From: a virus
Lineage: Duplodnaviria > Caudoviricetes
Direction: 5' to 3' (one strand)
Length of the DNA stretch: 64,000 bases
Virus record (IMG/VR): IMGVR_UViG_3300037067_016568
Span: 32,001-96,000 of that record
Positions 1 to 32,849 of the stretch are shown in pieces. A program made the position numbers and the translations under genes. Position 1 is the stretch's first letter; each line of letters begins with the position of its first letter. The notes under the pieces were generated by a model. That model did not search any database. It was not told the DNA's origin and saw nothing but the letters and a program-made list of their open reading frames with translations.

Positions 1-23
1 GCGGCGCGACCGGCGATGCCAAC

Positions 24-255
24 CCTGTAGTTACCTGGGAACGAACGCTATTCTCCATTCTATTCCGACCACTCCAGATGCAAGTTCTCCTGTAGTTACC
101 TGGGAACGAACGCTATTCTCCATTGATGCCGACCATTCGCTTTCGCAAGAGAACCTGTAGTTACCTGGGAACGAACGCTATTCTCCATTGCCGCTCATCA
201 GGGATGATGTTTTTGGGTACCTGTAGTTACCTGGGAACGAACGCTATTCTCCATT
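24..255 (-). CRISPR. CRISPR array 1: 4 identical 36-nt repeats, 3 full spacers of 29-30 nt; probably continues left of the window
   Basis: cctgtagttacctgggaacgaacgctattctccatt at 24-59, 89-124, 154-189, 220-255 with unique spacers. Minus orientation inferred from anti-repeat G-U wobbles, promoter motifs and gene direction. Confidence 0.95.
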
Positions 256-281
256 ACGCTATTAGGTGGTTCCCGGCACCT
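256..281 (-). promoter_or_regulatory. Conserved array-leader hairpin element (copy 1)
   Basis: taggtggttcccggcacct is identical at 263-281 and 1814-1832; stem AGGTG/CACCT; abuts the first repeat. Confidence 0.6.
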
Positions 282-807
282 TATCTTTCTGCACAGCCTC
301 GGTAGCGATGGCGTATTGCAGCTTAACATAACTCGAAGCTAATATCAGAAGCGTGTTGAGGTTAACGGTGATTTTCTCCTTGGGGCACTCTAAGTGCACC
401 AGTATCTCATCATTAACCTTTCGGCCTTTTATCTCAACCGCCCCAATTTCATTATTCAAAACCTTGCCGTTGATCCAAGCGGTGACACCATGACCGCTTG
501 GATCAGCCCAATCGTCCGACAGGCCAGCAGCCGCCATGAAAGCCAAAAGGCTTTTGCCCTCTGGCGATCGTGCCAAACTAGAAGACATTCCAGAGGTCTT
601 TGGAAGCCTTATTGTTATATCTCGCTCCACAGGCGTTTCGTCGTCTTCGAATTTGACAACCCACACTTCTGACGGCGGATTCGATGTATGACAAAGACGA
701 ACTAACGACACAAGTTGTGCCTTGCCTTCGAGTTCTAGATGTTCACTGGGAGTCTGTTGCTTCTTGTAGACGGAGCACCAATCTCCACGCCTCAAAACTG
801 ATTTCAC
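262..807 (-). CDS. Hypothetical protein (181 aa); stop codon lies in the array 1 leader
   Basis: ORF with GTG start, G-rich SD-like sequence and a promoter-like motif at 873-886. Confidence 0.7.
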   Translation of the reverse strand: MKSVLRRGDWCSVYKKQQTPSEHLELEGKAQLVSLVRLCHTSNPPSEVWVVKFEDDETPVERDITIRLPKTSGMSSSLARSPEGKSLLAFMAAAGLSDDWADPSGHGVTAWINGKVLNNEIGAVEIKGRKVNDEILVHLECPKEKITVNLNTLLILASSYVKLQYAIATEAVQKDKVPGTT

Positions 808-894
808 TTTACTAGTCCCCCCTGTAGTCCTGTCCCTGAATCTCGCAATTAAATCTCTGCGCTGTGATACCTTTTTATAGCTCGACGGATGTGG

Positions 895-1440
895 TTAATT
901 AGCTTCGAGTTCGGCAATCCGTGTTTGAAGTTCGGCAATCCGTGTTTGAAGTTCGGCAATTCGTGCTCGAAGCGCCTCATTCTCCGCTTCCAGGGTCTTA
1001 ATACGCGCCAAAAGCTGGTCCTGGACCGCCTGCATTGACGCCTTGATTTTGCGAGCTTCCTTATATGGATCAGCTGGCTTGGCCCGGCGACGACTACGTG
1101 GGGCGTCGGATTTCGTTTTGGCGAGCATGCCGTTATACATGTCGCGAAGCTTACCATTCTTCCATTGATATTCTTCCGGATAGTGCTTGAGCATCATCCG
1201 TAATTCGGAGAAGGTCAAGCAAAGGTCGATGACATACTCATCCAAGATGGCCAAGAGTTTGTTGTTGTCCAAGATCTCATTGTCGGCCCGAAAATCTGGA
1301 TCTTCATAGACGCTGTTCAGCAGAGTTGTCCGCCGATAGGCGTTGTGGCCGCTTGACTGCTGTAGCTTCCGGACTTGCTGTAAGAGCTTCTTGTACTGCT
1401 TTTCGCAGCGTGGCTGGGTTGGTGTGGTCGACCTCATCAA
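895..1440 (-). CDS. Hypothetical protein with C-terminal coiled coil
   Basis: AAGGAG RBS upstream; heptad repeat RIAELQT at the C-terminus. Confidence 0.8.
   Translation of the reverse strand: MMRSTTPTQPRCEKQYKKLLQQVRKLQQSSGHNAYRRTTLLNSVYEDPDFRADNEILDNNKLLAILDEYVIDLCLTFSELRMMLKHYPEEYQWKNGKLRDMYNGMLAKTKSDAPRSRRRAKPADPYKEARKIKASMQAVQDQLLARIKTLEAENEALRARIAELQTRIAELQTRIAELEAN
909..965. repeat. 21-nt tandem repeat (about 2.7 copies) encoding the heptad RIAELQT
   Basis: gttcggcaatccgtgtttgaa at 909-929 and 930-950, partial copy from 951. Confidence 0.9.
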
Positions 1441-1560
1441 TAGTTCTCCTTAGTCTTTTATGAAAAGCTGATAGTTGCGCACATTGACGACAACAAAATT
1501 TCTTGTTGCCGTTCAATGGCGTCTTACATATTGGACATTCCCCCTGTCCTGTAGTCCTGG

Positions 1561-1806
1561 CCTGTAGTCCTGTAGTTACCTGGGAACGAACGCTATTCTC
1601 CATTTTCGGCATCGGTGATCTCCCTGTAGTCCTGTAGTTACCTGGGAACGAACGCTATTCTCCATTTGCGGTTCTGTTCAGCGAGGAGGCTGTGGCCCTG
1701 TAGTCCTGTAGTTACCTGGGAACGAACGCTATTCTCTATTGCGACGTGCCATTACCGAATGCGATCTATGCCTGTAGTTACCTGGGAACAAACGTAATCC
1801 CACATT
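1561..1806 (-). CRISPR. CRISPR array 2: 4 repeats, 3 spacers; three repeats carry an extra 8-nt cctgtagt duplication
   Basis: Repeats at 1569-1604, 1631-1666, 1705-1740 (one mismatch) and 1771-1806 (degenerate); cctgtagt at 1561, 1623, 1697; unique spacers of 18, 30 and 30 nt. Confidence 0.93.
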
Positions 1807-1832
1807 TCGCTTTTAGGTGGTTCCCGGCACCT
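1807..1832 (-). promoter_or_regulatory. Conserved array-leader hairpin element (copy 2)
   Basis: Same 19-nt core as 263-281, at the same distance from the repeat. Confidence 0.6.
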
Positions 1833-1844
1833 AAATATGTCCCC

Positions 1845-2147
1845 TTAGTCCGGCAGCCTGAAAATATTAACCCATCTTCCATAGATTTTTGTTTTGCGCT
1901 TCACCAATTCGCCCGGCGTTCTGGCTAACGCCGCCATCACGCGATCTGATGTTTTCGTACATTCGTGCGGCCATCCTAGACGTTCAGCTATTAGATGTAA
2001 CAGCCCCTCATCACCAAACATGACAGCTGGGTTGTCTGTTTCTCTCAACACTTCAACGGCAGCATCGCATACTCGCATTATAGCTATGTATTCTGTAGTC
2101 GTATCCCAAATGGCGGTGTCAATTGATGAAAAAGAATATAAATGCAA
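1845..2147 (-). CDS. Hypothetical protein (start uncertain)
   Basis: ORF co-oriented with neighbours, ending just before the array 2 leader. Confidence 0.55.
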   Translation of the reverse strand: MHLYSFSSIDTAIWDTTTEYIAIMRVCDAAVEVLRETDNPAVMFGDEGLLHLIAERLGWPHECTKTSDRVMAALARTPGELVKRKTKIYGRWVNIFRLPD

Positions 2148-2171
2148 AATATTTCTGCTGCAAATGTCAAG

Positions 2172-2384
2172 CTAAATAATACAAGTGATAGAAACGTCGA
2201 ATGCGATTGATATAGTCAAGCAGATCCAAAAAGCCAGCATGCTACAAGCAATTGGCGTAAGGGGACATAACGTTTCAGCTAGTGCAAATGGCTTTATCTG
2301 GAATAGCACATACCAAATATTGCCGATAATCGGAGCAACAAATGGCGGAATAAGCAACCAGATTAATTTGTCTATCTTGCTCAT
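2172..2384 (-). CDS. Small membrane protein (2 predicted TM segments)
   Basis: Two hydrophobic stretches; TGTATAAT-like -10 box upstream (about 2394-2402). Confidence 0.55.
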   Translation of the reverse strand: MSKIDKLIWLLIPPFVAPIIGNIWYVLFQIKPFALAETLCPLTPIACSMLAFWICLTISIAFDVSITCII

Positions 2385-2457
2385 CTATATCACTATTATA
2401 CATCACTAAGAAGAAGCTGTCAAGCTCCCATCTGGCTACCCCGCATTCCGCCATGGA

Positions 2458-3600
2458 TTATCTGTTGATTGTTACGTCGATATCGATCTTATTACATGCC
2501 CGTTGGATCAACGATTGCATTTGTCGCCAATCCCATCGAGTCGTTTCAGTGTTGCCAATGCGTCCTGCATATTCTAAATAGTAATCCGCAGGAGGAGCAA
2601 AGATAACAAGATGACCGATGCCATTTGTTGCCAGTAATCTTGTCACATCATTGGCAAGGTGGGTGCTCCAGGTTTTGATGAAATCACGCCACCGCCGCTC
2701 ATATTTCGCCTTGTCTGCAGCCGAAATATATTTCCTGGTCTTCTTACTCTCTTGAATATCCAAGGTATTTCGCGTGTGTTCAACATCCTCGCCGCGACGA
2801 AGGCGGAATATGGTTTTACCATTGAATCGGAAGGAGAATGGGCGACGTTGCGCCGCTAACAGAAATGCCGTCTTATTCTTGTCAAGCGGTACTTTCACCT
2901 TGGGAATAGAATGGCAAGGATAAGCAATTAATCTACCGTCGCGTTCCTTCAAGTCGAGTCCCTTTAAATCCCATTCACCCGCTGCAATTTTCCACAGCAT
3001 ATCGCGGACAGAATGTAGCCTATAGCTTTTGGTCTTAATGATGAATGTCATCAAACCATAGCCGTCGACGTTGACCTCAAGCTTCCAATCTTCATTCTTG
3101 CTCTGCGGAACGATGATTCGGCAGTCACGTTTATGAAACGGAATGCTACTTCGTTGAGACGACTGTAGGAGACCTCCTCGGCCCAAAAGGACTGTTATCC
3201 AGCGAGGATAAGCCGACTTATACCCATGTTTCTGCAGTATTCTCAACGCTTTCTCGGTTGCTAGCTTACAGTGCTTGTTCATCGAGGGATATGTAGCAGA
3301 CATGATTTCGTCAAGCTGCTGAGCCATTTCGGTACTGCATGGATCGACAGGGCACCGCGTACGGGGGCCAACGCGAGTCTCAGGCTCGTAAAGCCAGCGG
3401 CGATCTTGTTCTGCCCATTCACGAACGAGAAGATGATTGCCAGCTTCAAAATGAATTCGCAACCATGCTGACATAAAATCGTTGACGATTCTCTGAATAT
3501 CAGAAGCAAGAGTGCCGATGTACTTTTTGTGTGACTTATAGTCATCGTCACCGCCAAGTAAACTGATTCGCTTGTTCTTAACAACTCGAAAGTCGGCCAT
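2458..3600 (-). CDS. Cas12f/TnpB-like protein B, predicted nuclease-dead and C-terminally truncated (380 aa)
   Basis: Paralog of 3735-5096. RuvC-I position reads TAFLLAA (no Asp), RuvC-II reads LVIFAPP (no Glu). W-D-W-x-x-MQ helix then IDVTINR-stop; no Zn finger or RuvC-III; adjacent to CRISPR arrays. Confidence 0.75.
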   Translation of the reverse strand: MADFRVVKNKRISLLGGDDDYKSHKKYIGTLASDIQRIVNDFMSAWLRIHFEAGNHLLVREWAEQDRRWLYEPETRVGPRTRCPVDPCSTEMAQQLDEIMSATYPSMNKHCKLATEKALRILQKHGYKSAYPRWITVLLGRGGLLQSSQRSSIPFHKRDCRIIVPQSKNEDWKLEVNVDGYGLMTFIIKTKSYRLHSVRDMLWKIAAGEWDLKGLDLKERDGRLIAYPCHSIPKVKVPLDKNKTAFLLAAQRRPFSFRFNGKTIFRLRRGEDVEHTRNTLDIQESKKTRKYISAADKAKYERRWRDFIKTWSTHLANDVTRLLATNGIGHLVIFAPPADYYLEYAGRIGNTETTRWDWRQMQSLIQRACNKIDIDVTINR

Positions 3601-3613
3601 ATCGTCCTCTGTA

Positions 3614-3710
3614 GGTTAAAAAAGGTAACTCTGGCGAGAGCTAACACGGTACGGAATGCCCGCAGCTATTCTCGCCTTCGAGACGTACAGGACGCCTCAA
3701 TTAGTGATTC
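3614..3710 (-). ncRNA. Putative tracr/scout-like RNA, copy 1
   Basis: 74 nt (3625-3698) identical to 5575-5648. Hairpin GAGGCGU-CCUGU-ACGUCUC, second stem GGCGAG/CUCGCC, 3' AGUUACCU then U-tract; complementary to repeat 3' end; TGCTATAA box at about 3718-3726. Confidence 0.75.
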
Positions 3711-3734
3711 TGCAAACTTATAGCACAAAAACAA

Positions 3735-5096
3735 TTATCGATTAACTTCTTTTTTACGGGGCTTACCTCCTTGCCTAGCGATTACTTTCATCCCGGCTGC
3801 TGCTCCAACCGCTTCCAACTGCTGCTGCATGTGGTACCAATCCCAGGCCGTCGATTCATTACGGCCAATTTTTCCGACATTAGAGAGATAACGAGTATCT
3901 CGCCATTTACCGGTTGGCTGATATGTTACCAGTTGACCAACGCCCGCTTTAACACAGCGACCTATAACCTCTGCGGCCCAAGTGTTGTTGAAGGTTTTGG
4001 TCTGATTACGCCAATTGCGTTCCGACTTTCGCCGCCAGTTATGGACTTTACGACCATGGTTTTTACGCGCACTAGATGCATATTTGTACGATTCGCTTTT
4101 ACCGAACCGTTGAAGCGTCAAAGAACGACGAGCATGTTTAATGTGCCTGCAGCTTCGCAGTTTCATATGTGTCTTACCATCAATGCGAAGCATCACGCCA
4201 TGATATCGACCACCTGATACGACAGCCGTTTTCTTGCTATCAGAGGGGGCAACCACACCGGGCATCAAATAGCAGATATCCGCATACCACTTGCCGGTGT
4301 TTTCACACTTAATGATCTGCGAAGTGCCGAAAATGTATTCGCCAGACGTAATTTTCCACAACACCTTGCGAATAGGTGCTAAATGACGCCCGCCAGTCCG
4401 AAGTTTGAAAACCATGGGGCGTAGAGTTCTTTGGCCATCTACTTTTTCGTAACGAACAATCAACTTCCAAGGGTCATTATTACTTTTAGGGACGACGAAG
4501 TTGCTGTTAGCGGTGTAGAATGGAACCGGTTGTGGTCTGGAAAATTGTGAATATTCTCCATATCCACATAGGATCATAAACCAGCGCTTATATTTAGACT
4601 TCGTGGCCGGTGTGGAGAGGAGCGTACTACTAAGCCGCCTAGAAACAATACCAATCGGTTTAGTCCCTAAATTGCAGTGTTGAGTAGTCAGGCGTTTATA
4701 GATCTCATTCGCCATCTTGTTAGAATATGGCTGAACGGGGCATTTTGCACGTGGAGGGATTTTCACGTCGAAAGAGGGGAGTAACTCCTTCTTTCCTTTT
4801 CGCTTCTGAGCTTTCTGAGCCTTGTCCAATTCGCCGTATTTCTGTGCCCATTCCTTATCTTCTTGTATCCATTTACGAAGAGCAGTGGGAGAGCCAGCTT
4901 CAAGATGCAAGCTAAACCACTGACTATGAAAATCATTTGCGATTTGCTGCATTTGAAGCGATATCTTGGCGAGACGTTCTTTTTCCTCTGCAAAGCCGTC
5001 GTCAATACCACATAGCTGGACGCGAATAATCTTCGTAAGTCCTTCTGGCTTCTTTTTACGTGGTTTCTTTTCTGCCGGTTTCTTCAATTTACTCAC
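3735..5096 (-). CDS. Cas12f/TnpB-like protein A, predicted nuclease-dead and C-terminally truncated (453 aa)
   Basis: Basic protein with TKIIRVQL WED-like start and KWYADICY strand. RuvC-I reads TAVVSGG (no Asp); Arg/Lys-rich bridge helix; RuvC-II reads LVTYQP (no Glu); WDWYHMQQQLE..GMKV then ends; AGGAG RBS. Confidence 0.8.
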   Translation of the reverse strand: MSKLKKPAEKKPRKKKPEGLTKIIRVQLCGIDDGFAEEKERLAKISLQMQQIANDFHSQWFSLHLEAGSPTALRKWIQEDKEWAQKYGELDKAQKAQKRKGKKELLPSFDVKIPPRAKCPVQPYSNKMANEIYKRLTTQHCNLGTKPIGIVSRRLSSTLLSTPATKSKYKRWFMILCGYGEYSQFSRPQPVPFYTANSNFVVPKSNNDPWKLIVRYEKVDGQRTLRPMVFKLRTGGRHLAPIRKVLWKITSGEYIFGTSQIIKCENTGKWYADICYLMPGVVAPSDSKKTAVVSGGRYHGVMLRIDGKTHMKLRSCRHIKHARRSLTLQRFGKSESYKYASSARKNHGRKVHNWRRKSERNWRNQTKTFNNTWAAEVIGRCVKAGVGQLVTYQPTGKWRDTRYLSNVGKIGRNESTAWDWYHMQQQLEAVGAAAGMKVIARQGGKPRKKEVNR

Positions 5097-5135
5097 TATA
5101 GTCTCCTACACAAAATAAGCGGCTTTATTCAGGGG

Positions 5136-5552
5136 CCTGTAGTCCTGTAGTCACCTGGGAACGAACGCTATTCAACATTCACATCGGGCTTGTAGTCAAG
5201 CCTGTAGTTACCTGGGAACGAACGCTATTCAACATTATTGAGACAACTTAATCAATGATGTCCTGTAGTCACCTGGGAACGAACGCTATTCAACATTTAA
5301 AACTGTCCCGTCCCGTTTTGATATAGCCTGTAGTCACCTGGGAACGAACGCTATTCAACATTTCAGAAGCTGTGAAAGCTTCATCTTGGCACGCCTGTAG
5401 TTACCTGGGAACGAACGCTATTCAACATTCCTCGGCGATTTCGTCGGCTGTAATTGGCACCTGTAGTCACCTGGGAACGAACGCTATTCAACATTTCCCT
5501 TCGTCGTGATAATCAGCCTGTAGTCACCTGGGAACGAACGCTATTCAACATT
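5136..5552 (-). CRISPR. CRISPR array 3: 7 repeats of a variant type (…tattcaacatt; gtcacc or gttacc), 6 spacers of 21-31 nt
   Basis: Repeats start at 5144, 5201, 5262, 5327, 5394, 5460, 5517; extra cctgtagt at 5136-5143. Confidence 0.96.
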
Positions 5553-5564
5553 ACGCTAACGGGT

Positions 5565-5660
5565 GGTTAAAAAAGTAACTCTGGCGAGAGCTAACACGGT
5601 ACGGAATGCCCGCAGCTATTCTCGCCTTCGAGACGTACAGGACGCCTCTATTTGGTGATC
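5565..5660 (-). ncRNA. Putative tracr/scout-like RNA, copy 2, directly upstream of array 3
   Basis: Duplicate of 3614-3698; 3' tail reads AGUUACUU (G-U wobble variant). Confidence 0.75.
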
Positions 5661-5727
5661 ATAGTTTATCTGGACTGTTTTAGCATCACATTAATAGGTA
5701 GTTAACTTCGATTAATCTCTTGTGAAG

Positions 5728-5914
5728 CCTGTAGTCCTGTAGTTACCTGGGAACGAACGCTATTCTCCATTTCGTCTCCATTTACATTTTGAACGAACGC
5801 TATTCTCCATTGACGCTAAGGGCCACGTTATCGGAGCACCTGTAGTTACCTGGGAACGAACGCTATTCTCCATTCGGCTGTTATGAAAAGATATTGCAGA
5901 TCCTCCTGTAGTTA
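5728..5914 (-). CRISPR. CRISPR array 4: 2 full and 2 partial repeats, 3 spacers
   Basis: Full repeats 5736-5771 and 5839-5874; partial repeats 5791-5811 and 5905-5914; extra cctgtagt at 5728-5735. Confidence 0.88.
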
Positions 5915-5995
5915 TTCACGAAGAAGTGTCATCTCGGATTTCTTTGATTTTTATTCATATGTGCTCTGATATAATCCTTTAGCACGCTGGTAGTT

Positions 5996-16446: not shown

Positions 16447-16797
16447 ATTAAATCCGCATCGCAATTCCCTGTAAATCTAATAATTCCCGTCACCACAACA
16501 GAAGAAGAACAAATAGTTGAAAAAATTCTGTCCGATGCTCTACCCAATTACGATTTCTTGTCCAAAATCTATTATGAAAACCCGGACGAGACTCAACGGG
16601 CACGTCTCTTGATAAATGGAGAAGAAGTCAAAAGAGGAACCGTTGAACAAATGAAAGAAGCTTTCACTTTACAATCGAGCATCAACTCTAAAGCTAATAT
16701 TATCGTTCAAGAGTGGCAAAAACAGCCTTTATCAAATAAATCAGCCGGATTCGTGACTGTTCAGTCTAGAATAGTCAAGGTATATTTTACAAACTAG
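16447..16797 (+). CDS. Hypothetical protein, possible ATT start
   Basis: AGGAGGT immediately upstream of in-frame ATT at 16447. Confidence 0.5.
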   Translation: MKSASQFPVNLIIPVTTTEEEQIVEKILSDALPNYDFLSKIYYENPDETQRARLLINGEEVKRGTVEQMKEAFTLQSSINSKANIIVQEWQKQPLSNKSAGFVTVQSRIVKVYFTN

Positions 16798-16808
16798 GTA
16801 ACTACAGG

Positions 16809-22449: not shown

Positions 22450-24075
22450 TCAAGTTCGTCTGATGATGTAACACAATTTTTCACCGCCATATTTCTTATA
22501 ATATCCCTTCGCCTCTGCAAATTCCCGCTCAGTCATGCTCAAGCTCTTGGCTTTACCATATAAAGTCCGTTTGTGCATAACATAGCCTTGTTTATCGACA
22601 TACCAATAGTCTGCAGGAACGATGTGATGTAACTGAAAGTTGGCGGCTTTGTAAATCGTACCTTGATGCCCAACTGTTGTATCTGCGTAAGCTATAACTA
22701 GTTTACAATCAATTTGTTTAAGGGCTCTTTTAATAAACCAACTGGCGAGATTCTTTTTATGATAGGACGGATGAATACACAATCTAGATAGTTCGCGAAT
22801 TTCTCCATCACACAAACCAAACTGTGATGCTGTGTTCTGTCGTAGGGGTGGACTAAAGACAACGCAAGCTATTAATTGATTATCGAGATAAACACCAAAC
22901 GCTTTACCACCTCGATTTTTCCCAAGGTAATGATAAAGATCTAAAAATTCTCTCACCTCAGCGAAGCTTATTTCTTTGATGTATAATTTACTAAATTCAA
23001 ATTGTTTGGTTTCGATATTCAACCCTAGTTTCAACTTCAATCTATCTAATACTCGATCCTTACAATAGAATTCATGTTCCCAGATATACATTATTTCATA
23101 TTCTGGGAAGTATCGATTAATATATGTGAATTTAGACTGGTCATTTCGTTCAGCTTTGGAGAGCGAATGCCAATAATCTCCTTGACATTCAATCAACAAT
23201 TTCTTATTACCATTGATATGTGGAACAACACAATCAAAAACGTAATATCCAATTCTCGTTTCTTCTCCTTCCTTGAAATATTCTATATGCAGATCATCCA
23301 GGAATGCATATAACATTTTTTGAATAGATGAGATCTGGCACTTTTGAGAAGCACGAGCTGCAGCTATTTTCTCACGATATTTCGAATTTAGCCAATTAGC
23401 TTTGGATGCTATCGCCAATTTTTCATTGTAATGTAATGTGGTATAAGTTTTGTTTTTATATTCTGGTGATGTTTGAATTATAGCTATTTGTTCTTCATTA
23501 ATCTTTGGTGCCTTGATTTTGGCTATTTTCTTCGTACCTCTCAATTTATTTGATTTTTTTGCTGGTGTTTGTTGTCTTACTGATATTTGTTGCTTGCGCC
23601 GTTCAGAGATCAATCTTGATTGGATAGCCCTGAACTCCTTGTTATTCCATTTTGCGACAGATGCAGCCAAAGCCTTAGTGATATGCTTTTTACTGGCTTC
23701 TGCTTGAAATATAGCAGATCTATCTTTATCAAAAATTATACCATTCTCTCTACCCGCTTTAGAAACCAAATGAAAAGATATTCCAAGATCTGATGCAATT
23801 TGAACTCTTGAAATCTTATTAGCATTCGCTTTAATATATGCCACTTGTTCTGGCGTAGCTGGCTTCGACTTATAATTTCTTATAGTGTCTCGATGTTCTT
23901 TGGTTGGAGAATATTTGATCGGCGCAATCCCTAATTTTCTAGCACGCACACCAATAGCTCTAGCGCAGATGCTTGGTAAGCATTTCTCACTAAATTCCTT
24001 TATAGTAAGAAATGGCAGATAGGTAATTATTAAATGGTCATATTTTGACCAGTCTACAGGTTTTCCAGATGGCAT
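22450..24075 (-). CDS. Fusion of DNA-binding repeats, Vsr/DUF559-like endonuclease and Mom-like GNAT domain (homing-endonuclease-like)
   Basis: FD..IECQGDYWH..IWEHE; ELSRLC..YADTTVGHQGTIYKAANF; AT-richer than neighbours. Confidence 0.7.
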   Translation of the reverse strand: MPSGKPVDWSKYDHLIITYLPFLTIKEFSEKCLPSICARAIGVRARKLGIAPIKYSPTKEHRDTIRNYKSKPATPEQVAYIKANANKISRVQIASDLGISFHLVSKAGRENGIIFDKDRSAIFQAEASKKHITKALAASVAKWNNKEFRAIQSRLISERRKQQISVRQQTPAKKSNKLRGTKKIAKIKAPKINEEQIAIIQTSPEYKNKTYTTLHYNEKLAIASKANWLNSKYREKIAAARASQKCQISSIQKMLYAFLDDLHIEYFKEGEETRIGYYVFDCVVPHINGNKKLLIECQGDYWHSLSKAERNDQSKFTYINRYFPEYEIMYIWEHEFYCKDRVLDRLKLKLGLNIETKQFEFSKLYIKEISFAEVREFLDLYHYLGKNRGGKAFGVYLDNQLIACVVFSPPLRQNTASQFGLCDGEIRELSRLCIHPSYHKKNLASWFIKRALKQIDCKLVIAYADTTVGHQGTIYKAANFQLHHIVPADYWYVDKQGYVMHKRTLYGKAKSLSMTEREFAEAKGYYKKYGGEKLCYIIRRT

Positions 24076-31839: not shown

Positions 31840-32849
31840 TGGCGTTGCTTTTTATAGATGGATTCGAATGCTATGGTACGTCTTCTAATATATCGTCAGA
31901 TATAATTCTAAGATATCCCGGTACTTCGACTATCAATATGTATGTTGCTGAAGGCCGAACAGGAGGATATTGTGCAAGACAAAGTGTTGGAAAGACTTTG
32001 ACAACACCCATATTAACAACAAAACACCCGACTCTTATAGTCGGACACGCCATAAGTTTTCAAAACAATTCAGGCAGTTATGCTTCAATAATATTCAGAG
32101 ATAATGGCGTCACAGGAGTTCGAGTCACATTTAATTATCTCGCATCGAATATCGAAGTATATGTTGGAAGTGAGTTGGTAGATACTGTTACTCTTACCAA
32201 TTCATTTGAGCACGATGTATGGTATTATTTCGAAGCTAAAGTTTATTGCCATGATACTAACGGAACAATAGAAGTTCGAATCAATGAAACAACAATCATA
32301 TCGTTGACAGATATCAACACTAAGGTAGGGACTGACTCCTATTACAATGTAATCCGCTTCGACTTCTATTATATCTATATCGATGATATGTATATATGCG
32401 ACGGCTCTGGAACAGCGGTCAATGATTTTCAAGGTGTGTGTCGCATAATAGGTCTGTTTCCGGACGCTGACACTGATACTGTAGAATGGACACCAAATTC
32501 AGGATCAATCCACTATAATCGTATAAATGAAAACCCGGATACTACAACTACTTATTTATCAAGTGCTAGCCAAAATTTAACAGATTTATTTTCGTATCCA
32601 AGTTTAACTGGTATCAATAATATAGCCGGGATACAGATAGCGACCAAAGGAAACAACGATGCCGGCACATGTGCTATTCTGCAAATGCCGATAATATCAA
32701 ACGAAATAACGGATGTAGGTGTAAATCAACAAATAATAGGCACTTCATATATAGAAGTGCAACGTATAAGCATGACAGATCCAAACACAGATCTGCCTTG
32801 GACAATTGATGGTTTAGCAGCAGCATACTTGGGTATAAGGATGATGTAA
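31839..32849 (+). CDS. Tail appendage protein, GFEG family paralog 3
   Basis: Colinear with paralogs 1-2; TAATG coupling. Confidence 0.7.
   Translation: MALLFIDGFECYGTSSNISSDIILRYPGTSTINMYVAEGRTGGYCARQSVGKTLTTPILTTKHPTLIVGHAISFQNNSGSYASIIFRDNGVTGVRVTFNYLASNIEVYVGSELVDTVTLTNSFEHDVWYYFEAKVYCHDTNGTIEVRINETTIISLTDINTKVGTDSYYNVIRFDFYYIYIDDMYICDGSGTAVNDFQGVCRIIGLFPDADTDTVEWTPNSGSIHYNRINENPDTTTTYLSSASQNLTDLFSYPSLTGINNIAGIQIATKGNNDAGTCAILQMPIISNEITDVGVNQQIIGTSYIEVQRISMTDPNTDLPWTIDGLAAAYLGIRMM

Follow-up and report, generated by a model that had tools for sequence, protein, structure and literature searches.

A duplicated ~80-nt element beside truncated Cas12f homologues of a phage, very probably a compact tracrRNA that pairs with the last 13 nt of the CRISPR repeat

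A 64,000-nt stretch of viral DNA (Duplodnaviria; Caudoviricetes), positions 32,001 to 96,000 of IMG/VR record IMGVR_UViG_3300037067_016568 and hereafter called the window, carries on its minus strand a duplicated element of about 80 nt, which lies among CRISPR arrays and two genes for truncated homologues of Cas12f. The element very probably (roughly 85%) encodes a trans-activating CRISPR RNA (tracrRNA) that clamps a 13-nt handle of the repeat with its tail and a hairpin loop, and loads CRISPR RNAs (crRNAs) into non-cutting DNA-binding proteins. In the mechanism proposed here, a Cas12f-type tracrRNA of ~80 nt would be expressed from the minus strand, probably from a sigma-70-like promoter of its own, would end at a run of U and, after such processing as the transcripts may undergo, would pair in trans with the 3' end of each repeat transcript, where the repeat abuts the spacer. 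The 3' tail would form a long repeat/anti-repeat duplex of 8 bp, and the loop of hairpin 1 would pair with the neighbouring five bases in a short duplex of 5 bp; together they would cover 13 contiguous repeat bases and make up a pseudoknot that adjoins the guide. Judging from solved Cas12f complexes, the protein-binding scaffold may be provided by hairpin 1 and stem 2. The ribonucleoprotein (RNP), presumably built on the two neighbouring Cas12f homologues, would most likely bind its target DNA uncut, as a roadblock or repressor for the phage. As long and short (pseudoknot) repeat/anti-repeat pairing is the published design of Cas12f1 guides, the element is a compact variant and not a new principle; what sets it apart is its small scale, along with effectors that are paralogous and dead, a phage as carrier and the presence of more than one copy, the geometry being already known.

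The two copies form a direct repeat of 84 nt at 98% identity (3619-3702 and 5569-5652) with an uninterrupted identical stretch of 74 nt, and they are the only copies in the whole source record, a virus record of 184,768 bp that is about 51% complete. A first-pass annotation of the window had described a duplicated ~85-nt RNA identical over 74 nt. Both the duplication and the identical run were recovered, while the functional element is shorter, at ~80 nt (3698-3618), positions 3614-3617 lying past the U-run. Copy 1 (3618-3698, minus strand) starts with hairpin 1 (3698-3680), in which arms at 3698-3692 and 3686-3680 form 7 bp around a CCUGU loop (3691-3687). Stem 2, also of 7 bp, is formed by 3676-3670 and 3639-3633, with an inner stem between its arms; the tail AGUUACCU occupies 3630-3623 and the U-run 3623-3618. 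Copy 2 (5569-5648, minus strand) displays the same architecture, with its tail AGUUACUU at 5580-5573 and a U-run after it. The hairpin, the loop, the 3' tail and the U-tract named by the annotation were all located in this way. Its placement of the copies, one upstream of a protein gene and one upstream of 'array 3', also holds, as copy 1 ends 17 nt ahead of the ATG of the 380-aa gene and the array at 5552-5144 has its first repeat 16 nt downstream of copy 2.

In hairpin 1, the loop is complementary to the final 5 nt of the repeat, as is the tail to the preceding 8 nt. Since the repeat ends in AGGUAACU-ACAGG or AGGUGACU-ACAGG, tail and loop together complement 13 contiguous repeat bases, and C-U and G-A mismatches block this pairing from extending at both sides; the proposal of a split anti-repeat to exactly the last 13 nt of the repeat is thus borne out. 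On the minus strand, the split pattern is found at the two copies only, against a chance expectation of 0.07 matches for the whole window and both strands, and the remaining five matches are the plus strand of the arrays themselves. The loop-repeat pairing corresponds to the short duplex of a Cas12f-type guide, and the three-dimensional pseudoknot itself is predicted from this complementarity. An Rfam scan of the window returned no family at gathering score, with chance-level matches only for the element. A likeness of the sequence after the copy 1 U-run to the repeat end was considered separately and discarded; relatives show no conservation of it, and the ribosome-binding site overlaps with it.

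A word-indexed search for relatives of the effectors gave only eight clusters (45-71% identity), and a profile search of 1.84 billion representatives gave 409 clusters at 50% identity, 187 of them below E 1e-30 and all of ~400-500 aa. Close-relative loci were taken from the IMG/VR contigs L001 (122 kb) and L002 (364 kb, 100% complete) and the ENA contig L008, and more distant ones from L010, L011, L012, L014, L021 and L024. Both whole records obtained for close relatives are viral, one of them a complete 364-kb phage. The element of L001, L002 and L008 is 90-96% identical to that of the window, whereas the effector proteins are only ~50% identical. It always lies on the strand of the effector. 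A copy stands immediately upstream of an effector gene in every locus covering that region (the window, L001, L002, L008, L010, L011, L012, L014 and L024), and further copies lie upstream of arrays; the element thus keeps to a defined strand and to the vicinity of a Cas12f-family effector and a CRISPR array, as is expected of a Cas12f-type tracrRNA.

A covariance model built on the alignment of 13 elements separates true copies (84-102 bits; 100.9 for copy 1 and 98.7 for copy 2) from chance loci (<=15 bits). It finds known copies only: two in the window and, in four viral records, 2, 3, 4 and 1, each of them in the effector locus. Nine loci picked up by a 19-nt core pattern (L013, L015-L020, L022, L023) were rejected by the model as chance, and a variant core-pattern search for further elements found nothing.

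A covariance check on related loci had been suggested in the first-pass annotation, and its outcome speaks for pairing both within the element and with the repeat. The consensus of the 13 elements comprises hairpin 1, stem 2 and the inner stem with 19 pairs, of which 6 are kept despite changes on both sides, indicating a conserved secondary structure of the scaffold. Tail and repeat co-vary over six lineages with differing sequences. The tail AGUUACCU faces the repeat part AGGUAACU in the window, AGUCACCU faces AGGUGACU in L001, L002, L008 and L010, and ACUUGCCU faces AGGCAAGU in L014; in L012 and L024, unrelated sequences form pairings of 11 and 10 bp, respectively, and in L021 there are 7 bp with one bulge. 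Cognate tail-repeat duplexes have energies of -10 to -19.7 kcal/mol and non-cognate ones mostly of -2 to -10 kcal/mol. Every tail has the repeat of its own lineage as best partner; for the tails of the window, G-U pairing makes the two window-type repeats about equally good partners. A 5-nt loop complement of the repeat end is present in all lineages; it is CCUGU with the repeat end ACAGG in all but L012, where a CCUAC loop and a GUAGG repeat end amount to two double compensatory changes.

The strand of the RNA is indicated by its fold and its variants. The minus strand folds at -32 kcal/mol (z -3.2 vs shuffles) and the plus strand at -21.9 kcal/mol (z +0.1). Variants of repeat and tail keep their pairing as G-U wobbles on the minus strand and would give C-A mismatches on the plus strand, in line with the orientation argued for at first, and hairpin 1 contains a G-U pair in 9 of the 13 aligned elements. 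That the element works instead at the DNA level (as promoter, recombination site or array leader), or as a plus-strand RNA, would suit an intergenic location adjoining arrays and an RNA that has been read from sequence alone. This is scarcely credible, however, when compensatory pair changes and G-U pairs are specific to RNA and to strand, the plus strand folds no better than its shuffles, and the terminators and promoter-like boxes described below are oriented with the minus strand.

The effector genes flank copy 1 on the same strand. A 453-aa protein (P0002) is encoded at 3735-5096 and its 380-aa paralogue (P0001), 30% identical to it and with the same truncation, at 2458-3600, both on the minus strand. 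Searched singly against Pfam, PHROGs and NCBIfam, neither protein gave a match. The family profile matches AsCas12f at E 1.4e-42, over residues ~87-372 of the 432-residue chain of 8J12, and the natural dCas12f (9n9c) at E 4.5e-18. A structure model from 9 sequences (predicted local distance difference test, pLDDT, 60) was replaced by one from 142 sequences (pLDDT 93), for which Foldseek finds AsCas12f at E 1e-20 and also matches ISDra2 and ISFba1 TnpB. The relationship to Cas12f is thus evident in sequence and in predicted fold (WED, REC and RuvC core). In the alignments, S, A or G stands at the position of the RuvC-I Asp. Across the 142 family members, RuvC-I and RuvC-II both lack a conserved acidic residue, no CxxC motif occurs, and the chain ends a median of 41 residues after the conserved Trp, the truncation falling before the zinc finger and RuvC-III. 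An intact RuvC D-E-D triad with a zinc-finger/target-nucleic-acid-binding domain is therefore not found in this family. As the RuvC acids, the CxxC motif and the C-terminal part are missing, the proteins were filed as nuclease-dead homologues and not as active Cas12f; judged by alignments and model, P0001 and P0002 are most likely truncated, nuclease-dead Cas12f homologues.

The whole record contains 28 repeats in five arrays, on a single strand throughout. Four arrays with a 36-nt repeat and spacers of 21-31 nt lie within window positions 1-5950, all on the minus strand: at 1-255 (four repeats inside the window and six more past its start), at 1569-1806 (four repeats), at 5144-5552 ('array 3', with seven repeats) and, upstream of copy 2, a small array at 5736-5874 (two full repeats and a truncated one). 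The fifth, with the same repeat and handle, is located at 123672-124054 of the genome, ~27.7 kb past the window end and at a distance of 86 kb from the effector locus; no tracr copy lies in its vicinity, and it can be read simply as a remote array of the dead-Cas12f system. On the minus strand, the 3' end of the repeat is AGGUAACU-ACAGG in 20/28 genome repeats; the G variant of the handle, AGGUGACU-ACAGG, is found in 5/7 repeats of the array at 5552-5144. The 5' two-thirds of the repeat are not conserved across lineages, and the handle follows the tracrRNA.

Two further features of the repeat were recorded. A 9-nt motif (GAGAAUAGC) is common to the 5' part of the repeat (e.g. 5552-5517) and stem 2 of the tracr element (3674-3666), which hints at the descent of repeat and scaffold from a single ancestral guide RNA. 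In three lineages, some repeats have an additional copy of the repeat end, of 8 nt, directly behind them (window 5143-5136, 5735-5728, 1704-1697, 1630-1623 and 1568-1561; L001 7714-7721; L002 14063-14070); it would shift the guide by 8 nt or offer a second docking site for the tracr loop.

Upstream of the copies in the window, L001, L002 and L008, a TTAAC-type box is followed after 16-17 nt by a TGCTAyAAT-type box. For copy 1, these promoter-like boxes span 3717-3745 on the minus strand (-35-like 3745-3740, -10-like 3722-3717, 17-nt spacer) and overlap the 3' end of the 453-aa gene; for copy 2, conservation points to putative boxes at 5677-5705, also on the minus strand (-35-like 5705-5700, -10-like 5682-5677). 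The boxes of the window score below the threshold of a consensus scan, and three L002 copies lie directly after open reading frames (ORFs) and are without such boxes. In L012 and L024, canonical terminator hairpins with U-runs immediately follow the tail.

At L001 9485-9575, nothing separates the tail from the last 9 nt of a repeat, behind which come a 29-nt spacer and more repeats. In the RNAfold prediction for this fusion, the long repeat/anti-repeat duplex is replaced by a hairpin of its inner 4 bp, closed by a tetraloop; the 5-nt pseudoknot partner is kept. As judged from its sequence and predicted fold, the fusion is a natural single guide beside dual-RNA units; it provides a precedent for the single-guide RNA (sgRNA) design that had been suggested from the window, and it agrees with the proposal of a split-then-refuse history for the guides of dCas12f (PMC13472631).

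Such a fusion also raises the question of whether the element is mainly a scaffold in cis, that is, the 5' part of a tracr-array or tracr-mRNA transcript that pairs with the first downstream repeat, or an omega-RNA-like single guide. Copy 2 is followed after 16 nt by an array on the same strand, and the U-run is not a canonical terminator; the three L002 copies mentioned above sit right behind ORFs without promoter-like boxes, and the sigma-E dCas12f relatives work with single guides (PMC13472631). Against this, copy 1 precedes a gene and not an array, strong terminators stand right behind the tail in L012 and L024, and two copies have to serve 28 repeats in five arrays, of which one lies 86 kb off and has no copy near it, so that most guides require action in trans. 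A mainly cis-acting scaffold is hence considered improbable as compared to a tracrRNA that acts in trans.

Throughout the loci examined, a copy stands immediately 5' of an effector gene and a U-run or terminator comes between the two, as might also befit a cis-regulatory leader or an attenuator of these genes, such as an autoregulation site, whose complementarity to the repeat would reflect the common descent hinted at by the 9-nt motif and not pairing. Copies, however, also precede arrays without a gene behind them (copy 2 of the window; L002 7208 and 10910; L008 7598), and common descent leaves unexplained the compensatory changes between tail and repeat in six lineages and those between loop and repeat in L012. 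A leader in place of a tracrRNA is thus very improbable, and the element may combine both roles, tracrRNA and leader of the effector genes.

Several points weigh against the tracrRNA reading. The ends and strand of the RNA are predictions from the nucleotide sequence. In the window, the U-run lies 9 nt past stem 2, an arrangement other than that of a canonical intrinsic terminator; termination may be leaky, and transcription is therefore likely to continue into the gene or array. Covariation of the loop comes from L012, as the loop-repeat pairing is invariant in the other lineages. Pairing of the 5-nt loop over its full length needs the closing U-A pair to open, the loops of relatives being of 6-7 nt, and the long duplex of 8 bp is far shorter than that of characterised Cas12f guides. 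The call of nuclease-dead effectors depends on alignment and a predicted model. Finally, no protospacer anchors the function of the RNP: the spacers gave nothing beyond chance against their own 185-kb record and the related loci, the locus with all four window arrays gave none against GenBank phages, and two spacers gave none against IMG/VR.

A third guide format may be represented by five solo copies of a 27-nt motif, in which a conserved AT-rich 14-mer is joined to exactly the 13-nt repeat handle, without the 5' part of the repeat. One lies at window 16783-16808 (+), and the others, outside the window, at genome positions 196 (+), 3419 (+), 14318 (+) and 12794 (-). They are located at gene boundaries, and one precedes a ribosome-binding site and start codon; they may be solo crRNAs, tracrRNA-docking mRNA leaders or a phage promoter. 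Within the 380-aa gene, 14 nt match one of the solo guides (window 3036-3049, E 0.008), probably by chance. A more inclusive reading, tentative and on the whole unlikely, is that one tracrRNA serves array crRNAs, tracr-guide fusions and solo 13-nt handles, that a heterodimer of the two dead Cas12f paralogues acts as a phage-encoded programmable transcription regulator, and that the locus is a living intermediate of the split-then-refuse history of guide RNAs (PMC13472631). The solo handles behind the AT-rich 14-mer at gene boundaries may then in some cases start mRNA leaders.

Elsewhere in the window, a 541-aa ORF at 22450-24075 (-) matches Mom-like DNA modification and HNH/homing endonuclease PHROGs (E 1e-27). 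The PHROG scan covered ten large ORFs, and 7/10 were without a match.

The locus offers a comparatively well-supported dual-RNA (tracrRNA and crRNA) design for a naturally nuclease-dead Cas12f, the published sigma-E branch having been reported without a tracrRNA. Its scaffold of ~80 nt and its effectors of 380-453 aa place it with the smallest candidates for RNA-guided DNA binding, a size of practical interest for compact repression or recruitment tools, and the L001 fusion marks the point at which the two RNAs have been joined in nature. The size of the family, ~400 clusters at 50% identity, and the viral relatives suggest that phages use such binders widely.

Among known systems, a long repeat/anti-repeat stem with a short one of 5-7 bp, forming a pseudoknot next to the guide, is shared by Cas12b, Cas12f1, Cas12g and Cas12l, and the short duplex is essential for AsCas12f1 (PMC11246509). 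The present system resembles type V-F1 Cas12f1 (AsCas12f1; PDB 8J12, 8DZJ, 7WJU) in an effector homologous in sequence and fold, in the guide lying 3' of the repeat and in the anti-repeat split into a long and a short duplex. It differs in the scaffold of ~80 nt, a figure of ~200 nt RNA per Cas12f1 dimer being given in PMC12255294. It also differs in effectors cut off before the zinc finger and RuvC-III and devoid of the catalytic acids, in two paralogues instead of one gene, in being phage-borne with several RNA copies, and in a locus in which no adaptation genes were seen.

The dCas12f-sigmaE systems of Bacteroidota (PDB 9N9C, 9N9M) are C-terminally truncated, RuvC-inactive and capable of RNA-guided DNA binding; they use chimeric single guides with 14-16-nt guides, and no tracrRNA-like species was found for them (PMC13472631). 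The same study mentions in passing a separate dCas12f cluster beside CRISPR arrays, with putative guide scaffolds upstream of the arrays (PMC13472631). The proteins described here are likewise C-terminally truncated, RuvC-inactive Cas12f homologues, but they go with a separate tracrRNA and arrays with spacers of 21-31 nt, and their family matches AsCas12f more closely than 9N9C. A scan of the 185-kb record, about 51% complete, gave no match to Sigma70_r2, and the operonic rpoE with a chimeric single guide that marks dCas12f-sigmaE was not found. In the locus L012, an extracytoplasmic function (ECF)-type sigma factor gene (1513-2097; Sigma70_r2, r4_2) lies 3 kb upstream of the dead-Cas12f gene and recalls dCas12f-sigmaE. 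No paper on phage-borne forms of dCas12f was found in the literature.

The effectors also share a common fold with those that use TnpB omega RNAs or right-end RNAs (reRNAs) and TldR guide RNAs, and the L001 fusion resembles such a single guide. Solved TnpB RNAs have a pseudoknot next to the 3' guide. Unlike in TnpB and TldR, however, the scaffold is not in or behind the 3' end of the effector gene and not at a transposon end, and guides are supplied by arrays.

As a short helper RNA with very limited complementarity to the repeat, the element is reminiscent of the short-complementarity untranslated RNA (scoutRNA) of Cas12c and Cas12d. ScoutRNAs belong to other Cas12 clades and pair through ~3-5 nt only, whereas 13 nt pair here, in the geometry of Cas12f. 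The first-pass annotation had called the element an unusually compact tracr/scout RNA; the tracrRNA reading and the small size stand, and the design itself was already published for Cas12f1. With an effector homologous to Cas12f and a guide of the published Cas12f1 design, the term tracrRNA fits better than scoutRNA.

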